A DNA stretch of 35,325 nt, taken from NCBI GenBank assembly GCA_020724125.1, contig DYHM01000001.1, forward strand, positions 1 to 35,325, written 5' to 3'. The stretch's first letter is position 1, and every line of letters starts with the position of its first letter. The notes beneath the pieces are model-generated. The model did not search any database and had not been told where the DNA came from. It saw nothing but the letters and a program-made list of their open reading frames with translations. The DNA comes from Patescibacteria group bacterium (lineage in GTDB: Bacteria > Patescibacteriota > Minisyncoccia > Minisyncoccales > CG1-02-41-26). The position numbers and the translations under genes were made by a program. Of this stretch, positions 26,429 through 33,474 are shown one piece after another.

Positions 26429-26947
26429 ATGTTTTATCTTCAAAAGCAATTTAGCAAAATTTACGATAAATACGTAAATAAACTCTATCGGTTTATTTTT
26501 TTTAAGGTAAATTCCCGAGAAATAGCTGAAGATTTAACCGCTCGGGTTTTTAGTAAGGGTTGGGAGAAATATAGAGAGAACAGTAAAGAAATTAAAAACC
26601 CCGGGGCTTATCTTTACCAAATTGCCAGAAGAGAAATCGCTGATTATTATCGCCAGCAATCAAGATTTAAAACAGTTTCAATAGAAATCAATCAGGGGGT
26701 TTTAAATCAAATAACCGACCCTCAATCAAGCATTGAGGAAGATTTAATACTTCAGGCAGATATTAAATTAGTTTTGACCGCCTTAAATCAATTAAGGGAC
26801 GATTATCAAAATTTGATTATTTGGCGCTATTTAGATGAATCGGGAATAAAAGAAATTGCGGAAATAATGGAAAAACCAGAAGGAGCAGTGAGGGTGATGC
26901 TTCACCGCGCAATCCAGGAACTCCGAGAGAAAATAGAGTCAGCGTAA
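26429..26947 (+). CDS. ECF-type RNA polymerase sigma-70 family factor
   Basis: 172 aa with region 2 ([24 protein letters not shown]) and a region 4 HTH ([37 protein letters not shown]). Confidence 0.85.
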
Positions 26948-26951
26948 AAAG

Positions 26952-27059
26952 GGTGAAAAAGGTGAAAAGGGAGAAAAGGGAGAAATGGGTGAAAAGGGCA
27001 AAAAGGGTGAAATAGGTGAAAGGGGAGAAATGGGTGAAAGGGGCGAAAGGGGTGAAAAA
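26952..27059. repeat. 12 tandem copies of a 9-nt unit, GGN-GAA-ANN
   Basis: ggtgaaaaa ggtgaaaag ggagaaaag ggagaaatg ggtgaaaag ggcaaaaag ggtgaaata ggtgaaagg ggagaaatg ggtgaaagg ggcgaaagg ggtgaaaaa. The array starts 5 nt after the sigma-factor stop. Confidence 0.9.
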
Positions 27060-27138
27060 TTGTAACAAAAACCCTTATTTTCCGTCTTAATAATAAAGAG
27101 AGATAAAATAGAAATTTATTGGACAATTTAATTGCTCA

Positions 27139-27867
27139 ATGGACGAAAAACAACTTCTTAAAAAAATAACTCTTCTTAAAAAAATAAAACCATCTCAGGA
27201 CTGGGTTTTTTTGACTAAACGAAAAATTTTAAAAGATGACTACTCTGGCATGAGAGAGAAATTATCTTTTTGGCAAGTTTTTTTTACTCCAATCAAAAGA
27301 CCTGTTTTGGTTTTCGCTTTTCGGGGCATAATTGTCTTAACTTTAGTTTTGACAAGCGGTGTTTTTTACTTATATTATTTAAATACCCAAATTGTTTCTA
27401 ATCATCAGTTTGTCGCTCAAACCAACAAATATAGACATTATGATAGTAATGAAGAGAAAAAAATCGTGGCAATGTTAGAAGAAATGCAGCAGGGTTTAGA
27501 AAAAATAAAACTATCTTTGGATAAAATAAAAAATTTAAAAAATCAGGGTCAAGCTTTGGTTATGAGCGAGGTAATTAAAATTACAGCCGATGTCGGCGAA
27601 AAAAGAATCAAGGAAATAAAAGGAAAAAACTCTCCCTCGGCGCAAGTATTAGCCAGTTTAACAGCAATAGAGAATGATTATAAAGAATTAAAAGAAGCAA
27701 GCGATGAACTCCAAAAAGAAAAATTGGTTGTTGCTTTTGAGGGCTTGAAAGAAATGACCTTAACCGAAGAGCAAAAAAGCCGTTTACAAAAAGCCGAAGA
27801 GTATTATAATGAAGGAAAACACAACGAAGCAATGGTTTTACTTGTTAAAATAATGGAAAAAAAATAG
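27139..27867 (+). CDS. Membrane-anchored anti-sigma-like protein (single TM, coiled-coil ectodomain)
   Basis: 242 aa immediately after the ECF sigma gene, with a TM helix (VLVFAFRGIIVLTLVLTSGVFYLYYL) and a helical K/E-rich C-terminal part. The role is inferred from position only. Confidence 0.45.
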   Translation: MDEKQLLKKITLLKKIKPSQDWVFLTKRKILKDDYSGMREKLSFWQVFFTPIKRPVLVFAFRGIIVLTLVLTSGVFYLYYLNTQIVSNHQFVAQTNKYRHYDSNEEKKIVAMLEEMQQGLEKIKLSLDKIKNLKNQGQALVMSEVIKITADVGEKRIKEIKGKNSPSAQVLASLTAIENDYKELKEASDELQKEKLVVAFEGLKEMTLTEEQKSRLQKAEEYYNEGKHNEAMVLLVKIMEKK

Positions 27868-27934
27868 TCATTTAGTCATTGTTTTACTCCAAAAAAAAGG
27901 AGTTTTTCTTCTTTTAGAAGATAAAACAAAGGTC

Positions 27935-31367: not shown

Positions 31368-31409
31368 TTTTGAATCTCTGTTTTAAGTTTCCCGATAGCT
31401 CAAATCGGA

Positions 31410-31450
31410 AAACCAAAAACCGGCTTAAGCCGGTTTTTGGTTTATTTGTT
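31410..31450 (+). terminator. Rho-independent terminator
   Basis: aaaccaaaaaccggc-ttaa-gccggtttttggttt followed by atttgtt. Confidence 0.8.
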
Positions 31451-31537
31451 AAAAAAAGAATTTTAAACTTGAAAAAGAACTAAAAAGGTTTAAAATGAAA
31501 ACGTGCTTGCAAATAAGCAAATTCAATTTGAAATTTT

Positions 31538-32800
31538 ATGTTTTTTGGAGAAATTTTAATTTATCTTATTATTTTTTCAGGCCTTTATTTTTCCATTTTT
31601 ATTTTTTGGGTTTTTCTTGAGAACCAGGGAAGAATTTATCAAAAAGAAAAAAACAAAAAATTCCCATTGGTTTCTTTAATTGTTCCCTGTTATAACGAAG
31701 AAAAGGGCGTTGAAAAAACCCTTTATTCTTTAATAAGTTTGGATTATCCCAAGGATAAACTCGAAATTATTTTTGTCGACGACGGCAGTTTGGACAGCAC
31801 TCTTCAAAAAGCCAAGCTTATTCAAAAAAAAGATAAAAGAATTAAAGTTTTTCATCAGGAAAATAAAGGTAAATTTATGGCTCTTAATTTAGGATTAGAA
31901 AAAACAAAAGGAGAGTTTATTGCCACGGTTGACGGCGATTCTTATCTTCATTCTTCTGCCTTAAAAAGGGCAATGAAATTTTTTGAAAACCCGGAAATAA
32001 AAGCTGTTTCTGGCACAGCCAAGCTTATTAAACCAAGAAATCTTATTGAGGGGATTCAGCGCGTAGAATATCTAATAGCTAATTTTTGGCGAAAAATTTT
32101 TTCTTTTTTAAATAGCCTTTATCTTACTTCTGGCGCCTTTTCTGTTTATCGACGAGAAATTTTTGAAACATTAGGTCCTTTTCGGGACCCAAAGCTTTTT
32201 CAGACCGAAGATTTAGAGATGGCTTTTAGGCTGCAAAAAGAAAATTTAAAAATCGTTCAAGCCATGGACGCTTTTGTTTATACCCGTCCTCCTTTTGGTT
32301 TTATGTCCCTTTTAAAACAAAGAACCAGGTGGTATGCCGGTTTTCTTCAAAACTTTAAAGAGTATTCTTGCCTTTTAAGCATTAAAAAATACGGCAACTT
32401 GGCTTTTTTTCTTTGGTATATTATTTTTAGCGTTCTCTTTTCAATAATTTTAGTCGGTTATTTTATTCAAAGAGGGTTCGAATTTTTTTTACAACTTTTA
32501 AACCAGTTTATTTTAACTGACTTTGATTTTTCTTATTTTTTTAGCTTGCCTAAAAATTGGGAATTTTTAAATTTAAACATAACACCTCTTTTTGTTTTAA
32601 CCATCCTTTGTCTTTTTGTTTTCTTTTTCAATTTTTTCCTAAGTCGAAAACTAAGTTTTGACAGTCAACCCTATAAAAAGGGAATTTTCTTTTTTATCTT
32701 TTTATATCCTTATTTTAACGCCCTTTGGTGGATTTCAGCTTTTTGGTCATTTCTTTCTAAAAATAAAAAAGAGTTTTTATGGTTGAAAAAAGAGAACTAA
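31538..32800 (+). CDS. Processive family-2 glycosyltransferase (PgaC/IcaA / cellulose-synthase-like)
   Basis: 420 aa with an N-terminal TM helix, SLIVPCYNEE, FVDDGS, VDGDS, TEDLE and the QRTRW (QxxRW) motif, followed by several C-terminal TM helices. Confidence 0.8.
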   Translation: MFFGEILIYLIIFSGLYFSIFIFWVFLENQGRIYQKEKNKKFPLVSLIVPCYNEEKGVEKTLYSLISLDYPKDKLEIIFVDDGSLDSTLQKAKLIQKKDKRIKVFHQENKGKFMALNLGLEKTKGEFIATVDGDSYLHSSALKRAMKFFENPEIKAVSGTAKLIKPRNLIEGIQRVEYLIANFWRKIFSFLNSLYLTSGAFSVYRREIFETLGPFRDPKLFQTEDLEMAFRLQKENLKIVQAMDAFVYTRPPFGFMSLLKQRTRWYAGFLQNFKEYSCLLSIKKYGNLAFFLWYIIFSVLFSIILVGYFIQRGFEFFLQLLNQFILTDFDFSYFFSLPKNWEFLNLNITPLFVLTILCLFVFFFNFFLSRKLSFDSQPYKKGIFFFIFLYPYFNALWWISAFWSFLSKNKKEFLWLKKEN

Positions 32801-33474
32801 ACTGGAAAAAACATTTTTTGGTATTTTTTATTACCATTTTGATTTTTTTAAGCGGGTTTTTTTTCAGTAATTTTTTTCTGGGGAAAAAAATTGTCCAAGC
32901 AACAAATCTTCAGCAGGATTTGATTTTAGATATTCTTTCTTTGGAAACCCAATTTTCTCTTTTAACTGAAATGCCTTGCAAGGGCTGGGATGAATCTATT
33001 TTAACCGAACAACTTCAAGTGATTGGGCAGAAACTTTCCGAAATAGGAGGCAGATTGGGCGAAAACAACCCTGATTTTATAAGATTCAAAAAATATTATT
33101 CAATTTTGGAAATAAAGTCCTGGCTCCTTTTAAAAAAATCCATCCAGAATTGCAAGTTAAATCTCGTTCCTATTTTTTATTTTTATGGTTCAGAAAAGGA
33201 ATGCGGTCAATGTCAGGACCAATCTTTTCTCTTGGGTTATTTTCATGAGAAATATCCATCTTTAAGGATTTATTCCTTTGACTATAATTTAGGACTGGGT
33301 GTTCTTCAAACCCTAAAATCAATGTATTCATTAAAAAAAGACCTGCCAATTATTATTGTTAATGGCAAGGTTTATTATGGCTTTCAAAACAAAGAAGCCA
33401 TTGAGAAAATCTTAAAAGAGTATCTTTTGGAAAACCAGATTGAGTCAGCCACCTCAACCCTGTTTCAGGAATAG
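32779..33474 (+). CDS. Membrane-anchored CxxC (thioredoxin-fold-like) protein
   Basis: 231 aa overlapping the GT2 gene by 22 nt, with one N-terminal TM helix. It has CGQC within a beta-alpha-beta-like context (VPIFYFYGSEKECGQCQD..LPIIIVNGKVY). Confidence 0.45.
   Translation: MVEKRELNWKKHFLVFFITILIFLSGFFFSNFFLGKKIVQATNLQQDLILDILSLETQFSLLTEMPCKGWDESILTEQLQVIGQKLSEIGGRLGENNPDFIRFKKYYSILEIKSWLLLKKSIQNCKLNLVPIFYFYGSEKECGQCQDQSFLLGYFHEKYPSLRIYSFDYNLGLGVLQTLKSMYSLKKDLPIIIVNGKVYYGFQNKEAIEKILKEYLLENQIESATSTLFQE

Follow-up and report, generated by a model that had tools for sequence, protein, structure and literature searches.

Within a 35,325-nucleotide stretch of DNA from a Patescibacteria group bacterium (contig DYHM01000001.1; this whole stretch, with a G+C content of about 31%, is referred to below as the window), comparison with related loci identifies a conserved module of three genes, which encode an extracytoplasmic function (ECF) sigma factor, a membrane protein that we call its partner, and a large surface protein of 1112 aa. 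The link between the sigma factor gene and the gene for this coat protein is real and conserved: sigma factor and partner are encoded directly upstream of the large gene in 29 of 67 related loci, drawn from many Patescibacteria lineages. On balance we favour a mechanism, set out after the evidence, in which the three genes form a combined regulatory and structural module of Patescibacteria (Paceibacteria and relatives), with expression of the coat protein coupled to the sigma factor through a promoter, P_ECF, located between the sigma factor and partner genes.

The original prediction, made from the letters of the window, had listed five co-directional open reading frames (ORFs) at 26429-26947, 27139-27867, 28029-31367, 31538-32800 and 32779-33474. 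All five are present, and the tie that it drew between the ECF sigma factor with its membrane partner and the giant surface-protein gene is borne out. Homologues of the window proteins that carry a source name are labelled Patescibacteria. The features discussed below are as follows, the last two proteins of the five being a family 2 glycosyltransferase (GT2) and a protein with a CxxC motif.

26429-26947, plus strand: ECF-type sigma factor, 172 aa (Pfam Sigma70_r2 and Sigma70_r4_2)
26947-27058, no strand: tandem array of the 9-nt unit AAAAGGGTG, 12.4 copies (Tandem Repeats Finder score 126-140)
27061-27086, plus strand: predicted promoter P_ECF, TGTAAC-N16-CGTC, between sigma factor and partner genes, ending 52 nt before the partner ATG
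27139-27867, plus strand: single-pass membrane protein in the anti-sigma position, 242 aa, DUF5667-related (AlphaFold2 model, profile search)
27868-28028, plus strand: structured leader with helix 27875-27884/27935-27944 and hairpin 27946-27979
28029-31367, plus strand: secreted surface protein, 1112 aa, candidate surface-layer (S-layer) protein (AlphaFold2 model, homologues)
31410-31443, plus strand: predicted intrinsic terminator closing the surface-protein unit (15-bp stem with 7 GC pairs, T-rich tail)
31469-31496: sigma70-like promoter between the large gene and the GT2 gene
31538-33474, plus strand: GT2 and CxxC unit, outside the module (own promoter, no synteny, fusions)

Gene order in related loci

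From an alignment of the 1112-aa protein family we fetched 80 genomic loci, to which 8 loci from metagenome assemblies were added, and the ORFs of these loci were searched iteratively with the window proteins and with a helix-turn-helix (HTH) protein found upstream of the sigma factor gene in relatives. Gene-order classes were counted in the 67 loci that have at least 3.5 kb of sequence upstream of the large gene. Sigma factor and partner genes precede the large gene together with the HTH gene in 21 of these loci and without it in 8; the HTH gene stands there alone in 22, and none of the three is found in 16. Among loci with enough upstream sequence the sigma factor and the partner co-occur in every case (29/29) and are never separated. 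The closest relatives of the window module are the loci L003 and L085. The layout of the window is also that of L020, from Minisyncoccus archaeiphilus (NZ_AP038758.1, 26178-50611), and as this organism is in culture experiments on the module are feasible. Counted along L020, the HTH gene occupies 7167-7973, the sigma factor gene 7997-8530 and the partner gene 8584-9339, and a GTAAC-N16-CGTC sequence begins at 8535.

An ECF-type promoter within the module

P_ECF emerged from a scan for ECF-type two-block motifs over 1.5 Mb of loci, of which module regions make up 7.3%. Strict matches to GTAAC-N15-17-CGTC number 43 on the gene strand and 16 on the opposite strand, and 37 of the 43 lie inside module regions (binomial P 4e-36). 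Between the 3' end of the sigma factor gene and the start of the partner gene, TGTAA(C/T)-N16-CG(T/A)C is present in 26 of 36 sigma-bearing loci, the window included. The copy at 27061-27086 is the sole match in the window with one mismatch or fewer, and its position weight matrix (PWM) score of 35.7 lies within the training range (14.3-37.4), the runner-up in the window scoring 10.9. Its -35 sequence is of the AAC type and its -10 sequence of the CGTC type, which, given the linkage to a sigma factor gene, would be in keeping with recognition by an ECF sigma factor.

Two other arrangements of P_ECF are seen. In one, that of L005, L071 and L087, it stands 8-10 nt ahead of the called start of the sigma factor gene, and a longer partner ORF begins 2-85 nt after that gene; of these three partners that of L087 alone has a Pfam DUF5667 hit on record. 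Another 12 loci have neither sigma factor nor partner, and in them P_ECF is found 198-569 nt upstream of the large gene with no intervening gene, which links this type of promoter directly to the coat-protein gene. The simplest reading of these three alternative architectures is that P_ECF would be the cognate promoter of the module sigma factor, and that in the sigma-less loci it would act on the large gene directly. The leaders between partner and large gene in sigma-bearing loci contain no second P_ECF (best PWM scores from -20 to +8.6, against a training minimum of 14.3), so that co-transcription of the partner and large genes would be the simplest route. A SigW-like candidate in the window leader, TGAAAA (27958-27963)-N16-CGTA (27980-27983), was rejected: its PWM score of -1.6 is that of background and it is not conserved in L003 or L085.

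The sigma factor and the DNA upstream of its gene

The sigma factor matches Sigma70_r2 (E 1.6e-11) and Sigma70_r4_2 (E 5.3e-13) in Pfam, with no further regions, and scores 81.6 bits against the NCBIfam sigma70-ECF superfamily model TIGR02937 (cutoff 42.9), which places it among the ECF (group 4) sigma factors. The best named model is that of the BldN family, TIGR02952, at 115.3 bits and below its equivalog cutoff of 206.45, and the best solved relative is a BldN structure (6dxo_A, E 4.4e-15).

None of the 26 loci with P_ECF between sigma factor and partner has a copy of it upstream of the sigma factor gene, an arrangement that argues against positive autoregulation. In relatives this gene has a near-consensus sigma70-type promoter, TTGACT-N17-TATAAT, downstream of the HTH gene. 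In the window the best P_ECF-like site upstream of the sigma factor gene has a PWM score of -12.6, so that P_ECF is absent there, and boxes of the type found in relatives (described below) are likewise lacking; the sigma factor autoregulation that had been predicted is therefore not supported in the window.

The HTH protein of the relatives measures 200-290 aa, with a Pfam HTH_DeoR match in L001. Its gene is followed by 3-12 TAGGACA/TGTCCTA boxes (GTGGACA in some lineages), which overlap the TTGACT-N17-TATAAT sequence before the sigma factor gene. HTH genes with such box arrays are seen about 300 nt upstream of the sigma factor gene in L001, L007, L009, L022, L023, L038, L040, L046, L048, L050, L051, L066 and L076, and HTH genes with arrays occur also in L006, L043 and L053. 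In 22 loci without a sigma factor gene it is the coat gene that directly follows the same HTH gene. A search of the window for a homologue of the HTH regulator found none, nor does the window contain TAGGACA or GTGGACA boxes; L003 and L085 are also without the HTH gene and the boxes.

The AAAAGGGTG array, situated between the sigma factor stop codon and P_ECF, is specific to the window; in the loci L003 and L085 the 3' end of the sigma factor gene is directly adjacent to P_ECF or overlaps with it. Further short tandem arrays lie around the gene at 26210-26264, 26170-26197 and 26390-26420, the units besides AAAAGGGTG being AAATCC(T) (about 8 copies), CCAATTTTCAATGA (2 copies) and ATTGAAA (4.4 copies). 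In period and position the window arrays near the sigma factor gene resemble the operator-like TAGGACA arrays of relatives. The tandem arrays also give rise to spurious minus-strand ORFs at 26817-27126. Upstream of the sigma factor gene is a hairpin at 26301-26340 (about 20 bp, dG -34 kcal/mol, z -5.9), which lies 140 nt after an RNase HII-like gene and has no T-run behind it. A related copy of one arm, with 3 mismatches, occurs at 17097-17114 on the minus strand inside a topoisomerase-like ORF, and the hairpin may be a repeated palindromic element.

The membrane partner

The partner has one hydrophobic, transmembrane (TM) span at about residues 52-82. In the AlphaFold2 model (predicted local distance difference test, pLDDT, 77.6) two short helices in the cytoplasmic N-terminus are followed by the TM helix and by an extracytoplasmic helical bundle at residues 104-240, where pLDDT exceeds 90. 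Residues 1-88 contain neither Cys nor His. Sequence searches of Pfam and the PDB give no match to a zinc-binding HxxxCxxC, class II or class III anti-sigma domain, a Foldseek search of the PDB with the model returned nothing at E<0.4 and only generic helical bundles, and similarity to the anti-sigma factor RsbN is not detectable.

A profile search with the partner family reaches the DUF5667 proteins of PF18915, and the Pfam model for DUF5667 is matched by 3 of 29 partner-family members (best E 9e-12); the window partner itself has no match to it at E 0.1 or better. In L086 and L087 proteins with DUF5667 Pfam hits fill the partner slot, the hit being marked as weak in L086 and bearing no such mark in L087. 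As judged from these profiles, the partner is related to DUF5667 by distant homology only. A literature search for DUF5667 found no paper that mentions it, and we know of no established function for the family.

The partner gene is adjacent to the sigma factor gene and is inherited with it in all 29 cases, as is typical of membrane anti-sigma factors. Position, topology and strict co-inheritance together argue for a putative anti-sigma role, and we infer that the partner binds the sigma factor.

The leader of the surface-protein gene

The sequence between the partner and surface-protein genes (27868-28028) is more stably folded as RNA than shuffled sequence (z -5.0), and the AAAGGTCG box occurs in it twice (27928-27936 and 27974-27982). 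Both the helix and the hairpin of this leader recur in L003 and L085, where pairs have become G-U or have changed in a compensatory manner. GGTCG is found upstream of the large genes at 3.04 per kb as against 0.39 per kb, an 8-fold and strand-specific enrichment, and is present in 52 of 79 loci when the gene strand alone is considered over the 250 nt upstream of the large gene. Sigma-bearing loci favour the form (A)AGGTCGA(C), and loci with the HTH gene alone favour TTGTCGAA, which occurs there in hairpin loops with covarying stems. A comparison by eye of the sigma-less loci that were checked places the GGTCG boxes downstream of P_ECF, so that they would be transcribed. GGTCGA was also considered as an ECF -10 sequence and rejected, as a -35 partner at fixed spacing is found in at most 8 of 40 leaders and as the box lies downstream of P_ECF in sigma-less loci.

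An alternative to co-transcription, to which we give a modest likelihood, is that the sigma factor drives the partner gene only, that the coat gene has a promoter of another type within 27868-28028, that the AAAGGTCG boxes are promoter-proximal or operator elements acting as DNA, and that the adjacency of the genes reflects a looser functional link. The terminator-like hairpin at 27886-27903 (a 5-bp stem with a T-run), right after the partner gene, would suit this model, as it could stop much of the read-through into the large gene in the window, but it is specific to the window and absent from L003 and L085. In the 22 loci with the HTH gene alone the large gene seems to be read from sigma70-like -10 boxes, whereas in 12 others P_ECF stands directly before leader and large gene. 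Both leader boxes follow GATAAA, two other copies of AAAGGTCG in the window lie about 10-20 nt after TACAAT or TATAAT, and GGTCGAC-type boxes are partly palindromic, all of which would be in keeping with DNA elements; a two-block motif of fixed spacing is, however, common to at most 8 of 40 leaders, and the boxes of relatives lie in or beside hairpins with covarying stems and variable insertions, as would suit an RNA more than a promoter.

The two other AAAGGTCG copies, at 3365-3373 and 9385-9393, are each downstream of a sigma70-type -10 sequence. The first comes after TTGACA-N17-TACAAT at 3328-3356 and before a small acidic ORF whose start is at 3406; upstream of the second are an RnpA-like gene and TATAAT at 9370-9375, and downstream of it is a transposase-like frame at about 9470-9660.

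In the coat-gene leaders of ten relatives (L007, L022, L023, L035, L039, L046, L048, L050, L066 and L076) an AGTCG box and a GGTCGAC box flank a 9-bp hairpin whose loop, A-N-UACGUAA, is invariant. In hand-picked segments it is 95.6% paired with compensatory changes in 4 of 9 pairs, as against at most 53% for slid controls. The hairpin of loci with the HTH gene alone is a different one, in which ACGC...GCGU encloses a loop reading UGUCGA. An Rfam scan of the window and six related loci found no known RNA family, and the A-N-UACGUAA hairpin, for which there is no Rfam match, is a candidate for a new leader RNA motif.

The surface protein

The 1112-aa protein has a hydrophobic, signal-like N-terminus, followed by a coiled coil (residues 31-55), a domain resembling peptidoglycan (PG)-binding domains (about 70-155), a Pro-rich linker (161-176) and a body of about six immunoglobulin (Ig)-like beta-sandwich domains (AlphaFold2 pLDDT 88.7). 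It had been predicted to be secreted and to bind PG; the N-terminus agrees with the former, whereas the PG_binding_1 match, although listed for many homologues, is below threshold in the window protein (19.0 bits, cutoff 23). Foldseek returned only generic multi-Ig proteins. There are at least 414 homologues, about 1050-1300 aa long, and those with a named source are all labelled as Patescibacteria or one of its subgroups.

Outside evidence is reached through L020, whose protein GMX59286.1/WP_412732637.1 (Minisyncoccus archaeiphilus) is 41% identical to the window protein over its full length. GMX59286.1 is listed among predicted Patescibacteria S-layer proteins in the supplement to a preprint (bioRxiv 10.1101/2024.05.28.596244), with which the surface-layer reading of the original prediction fits. 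That reading is in keeping also with the expression of PG-binding-domain proteins in Minisyncoccaceae, where they rank in the top five of the secreted transcripts (PMC10936435). A signal-like N-terminus, a domain of wall-anchoring type and a large beta-rich body are, as predicted here, the properties looked for in an S-layer protein, and we regard the large protein as a candidate S-layer subunit that would form a lattice.

It is also conceivable, although we think it unlikely, that the large protein is a PG-anchored adhesin for host attachment, with the sigma factor and partner switched by host contact and not by the state of the envelope. Many Patescibacteria are episymbionts, and the fold matches are to Ig-domain adhesins and pilins, namely PrgB, antigen I/II and CfaB. 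In three Paceibacteria, proteins with PG-binding domains are encoded within the top five, by expression, of the secreted genes whose function is unknown, and host attachment was proposed for them (Kuroda et al., PMC10936435); homology of these proteins to the window protein was not confirmed, nor was the identity of their PMX.108_00302 with GMX59286.1. The two tandem paralogues in Minisyncoccus, described below, might also be expected of adhesins. The family is, however, widespread and uniform in length with all of its domains conserved, unlike fast-evolving host-specific adhesins, and in the homologue P0119 an SLH domain replaces PG_binding_1. Furthermore, the supplementary table of the preprint enters the L020 homologue as a predicted S-layer protein, in an entry read as the hexagonal lattice type.

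At the C-terminus (window 31240-31367) the large protein carries the motif W..D.S...H.....DW, of which W1079, D1081, H1087, D1093 and W1094 are invariant in 61 homologues, followed by a well conserved YLVKNLPTD.QTL tail. This motif may act in secretion, anchoring or lattice contact. In L020 two coat-protein paralogues lie in tandem (9749-13306 and 13961-17488) behind a single HTH-sigma-partner set; L025 likewise has two tandem paralogues, and L070 is listed alongside.

Neighbouring genes and other features of the window

The GT2 synthase (31538-32800) is of the processive type, with QRTRW at residue 261 and 3-4 TM spans, and belongs to PF00535 (E 4e-32). The prediction of a PgaC/IcaA-like QxxRW enzyme holds as regards this motif and a full-length alignment to TIGR03937, but the score of 166 bits is far below the equivalog cutoff of 422.3. 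The CxxC protein (32779-33474), whose gene overlaps that of the GT2 by 22 nt, has an N-terminal TM span and CGQC at residues 142-145. A Pfam search with the window protein gave no hit and a metagenome scan found no relatives of it; a search of a representative library gives a family of 840 cluster representatives, and in the homologues P0234 and P0241 weak, below-cutoff thioredoxin matches (E 0.001-0.006) cover the CxxC region. Thus of three proteins for which no family could be named at the outset, the partner is related to DUF5667, the large protein has a family of at least 414 members and the CxxC protein has one of its own with a weak thioredoxin signal.

Homologues of the GT2 were sought within 3 kb downstream of the large gene and those of the CxxC protein in flanks of up to 10 kb, and neither was found in any of 87 loci; the conservation of gene order that had been anticipated thus extends to sigma factor, partner and large gene (29/67 loci), but not to the GT2 and CxxC genes. 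In the window the supposed compact five-gene cassette is split between the large gene and the GT2 gene by the terminator at 31410-31443 and the promoter at 31469-31496. P0241 (717 aa) is a natural fusion of GT2 and CxxC proteins, and P0158 and P0234 (475-479 aa) are fusions of the CxxC protein to an N-acetylglucosamine (GlcNAc) de-N-acetylase of the PIG-L type. From the terminator, the separate promoter, the absence of synteny and the mutual fusion, we conclude that GT2 and CxxC form a separate two-gene unit, which probably serves a GlcNAc-type polymer. The fusions among GT2, CxxC and PIG-L proteins point to a conserved synthase/thioredoxin-like/deacetylase system in these bacteria.

The original prediction had placed GAAC-N17-TC(T/A)(G/A)A promoters before both the sigma factor and the surface-protein genes. 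In the first copy, however, GAAC (26286-26289) and TCAAA (26309-26313) are 19 nt apart and not 17, and TCAAA falls in the 5' arm of the hairpin at 26301-26340. The copy at 27935-27960 is the only one in the window, where 1.04 are expected, and 66% of shuffled sequences contain one or more; its GAAC lies in the 3' arm of the leader helix (27935-27944) and its TCTGA at the apex of the hairpin at 27946-27979. In the closest relatives GAAC is changed to GAGC (L003) and TCTGA to TCTAA. The notion of an autoregulated cassette of five genes, read from such promoters and building a layer of protein and polysaccharide, draws on the closeness and common direction of the genes, on the processive-type synthase with QRTRW and on the 17-nt spacing kept in L003 and L085, but it is contradicted by the synteny as well as by the motif being no more frequent than chance and buried in stable RNA helices, by the lack of any P_ECF-like or shared motif upstream of the sigma factor gene, and by the strong terminator, separate promoter and fusions just described, and we consider it highly improbable.

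Elsewhere in the window, ORFs at 5821-8582 on the minus strand look like DnaN and DnaA when their translations are read by eye. Together with a drop in G+C to 21% across 6-8 kb this suggests a chromosomal replication origin region at about 6000-8000.

Proposed mechanism and its significance

Gene order, the coupling of sigma factor and partner, the promoter and the leader are conserved. In the mechanism that we favour, expression of the sigma factor would depend on sequence upstream of its gene that is not of the ECF type, and free sigma factor would direct RNA polymerase to TGTAAC-N16-CGTC at 27061-27086. Transcription from P_ECF would cover the gene of the DUF5667-related putative anti-sigma factor, providing negative feedback, and would most likely read on through the structured leader and across the gene of the coat protein, a PG-anchored multi-Ig protein, ending at 31410-31443. 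The signal would be some state of the wall or of the coat, which the extracytoplasmic bundle of the partner would sense, so setting the release of the sigma factor; control by envelope stress, as put forward in the original prediction, is conjectural. Long 5' leaders of other S-layer mRNAs act in processing or stabilisation; likewise the GGTCG boxes and helices of the leader could act at the level of RNA, processing or stabilising a very abundant coat mRNA. A fuller version, in which an HTH-gated sigma factor, a single promoter for anti-sigma factor and coat, a homeostatic loop through the DUF5667 ectodomain and tuning by the GGUCG leader all operate jointly, is offered tentatively, as a possible combination that we would not rely upon.

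Several points weigh against the favoured mechanism. Promoter use, co-transcription and dependence on the sigma factor are deduced from sequence alone. The terminator-like hairpin at 27886-27903 lies between the partner and large genes. ECF control is not universal in the family, since in 22 related loci P_ECF is missing and the large gene, with -10 boxes resembling those of sigma70, lies behind the HTH gene. The cytoplasmic part of the partner comprises about 50 residues at pLDDT 47-75 and has neither a zinc-binding motif nor a fold match to a known anti-sigma domain, and the window partner falls below every Pfam threshold. Lattice formation by the large protein is an outside prediction for a homologue of 41% identity, and Kuroda et al. 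(PMC10936435) read their PG-binding-domain proteins as host-attachment factors.

Patescibacteria account for a large share of bacterial diversity and have extremely reduced genomes with few regulators. To our knowledge almost nothing is known of gene regulation or envelope biogenesis in this group, the candidate phyla radiation, and literature searches for ECF with anti-sigma and Parcubacteria, and for Patescibacteria with S-layer and sigma factor, found nothing. The module provides a concrete circuit, with a defined promoter, a sigma factor/partner pair, an often-linked HTH gene with operator-like arrays and a conserved leader RNA, around what is probably the most abundant envelope protein of Patescibacteria. 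If the mechanism is correct, no transcriptional circuit would have been defined before it in this large and mostly uncultured radiation, and it would be one of few cases in which an ECF sigma factor controls an S-layer gene. A function for DUF5667, that of sensor domain in an anti-sigma factor, is likewise suggested by the module.

Comparison with known systems

Among the predicted Patescibacteria S-layer proteins in the preprint supplement, the other entries are 1131-1274 aa in length, similar to the window protein. The preprint (bioRxiv 10.1101/2024.05.28.596244) is a survey by structure prediction, and its accessible part does not mention the gene neighbourhood, the sigma factor/partner pair, the promoter or the leader. 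DUF5667 proteins measure 308-384 aa, as against 242 aa for the module partner. The GT2 shares the QxxRW motif and C-terminal TM helices with PgaC/IcaA, but no PgaABD or IcaBD genes are present, its partner being a thioredoxin-like membrane protein and not IcaD or PgaD.

The consensus promoters of Bacillus subtilis SigX and SigW are tGtAAC-N17-CGaC and TGAAAC-N16-CGTA respectively. The module resembles the SigX/SigW/SigM systems in having AAC at -35, CGTC/CGAC at -10 and a 16-17-nt spacer, as well as a sigma factor built of sigma2 and sigma4 domains, next to which a membrane partner with a single TM span is encoded. In the B. subtilis operons, however, the promoter lies before the sigma factor gene and gives positive autoregulation, whereas in the module it lies after it; the anti-sigma factors of B. 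subtilis have a zinc-binding class I domain, whereas the cytoplasmic part of the module partner has no Cys or His; and the apparent output of the module is one structural coat gene where that of B. subtilis is a stress regulon.

As an analogue, the closest system would be that of BldD, BldN, RsbN and the chaplins in Streptomyces, in which BldD controls bldN, the promoter of rsbN (encoding the adjacent membrane anti-sigma factor) is a direct BldN target, and BldN drives the chaplin and rodlin coat genes (PMC6101532). As is proposed for the module, the Streptomyces circuit has an ECF sigma factor under a separate DNA-binding regulator and not under itself, a single-pass anti-sigma gene beside that of the sigma factor with a promoter targeted by that sigma factor, and secreted proteins of the external coat as its main output. 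Many relatives of the module have the HTH gene and operator-like box arrays upstream of the sigma factor gene, although the window is without the HTH gene. The module sigma factor scores best against the BldN model and 6dxo, yet reaches 115 bits where 206 are required, and the partner is DUF5667-related, unlike RsbN; on account of the failed family cutoff and the unrelated partner the module is to be seen as an analogue and not a member of the BldN system. Its coat protein is a 1112-aa PG-anchored multi-Ig protein whereas the Streptomyces coat is made of small amyloid proteins, and a single promoter seems to serve both its partner gene and its coat gene, unlike in Streptomyces. Notwithstanding these differences, the logic by which a sigma factor drives both its anti-sigma factor and a coat, as in Streptomyces BldN/RsbN, would recur here in a very distant lineage.

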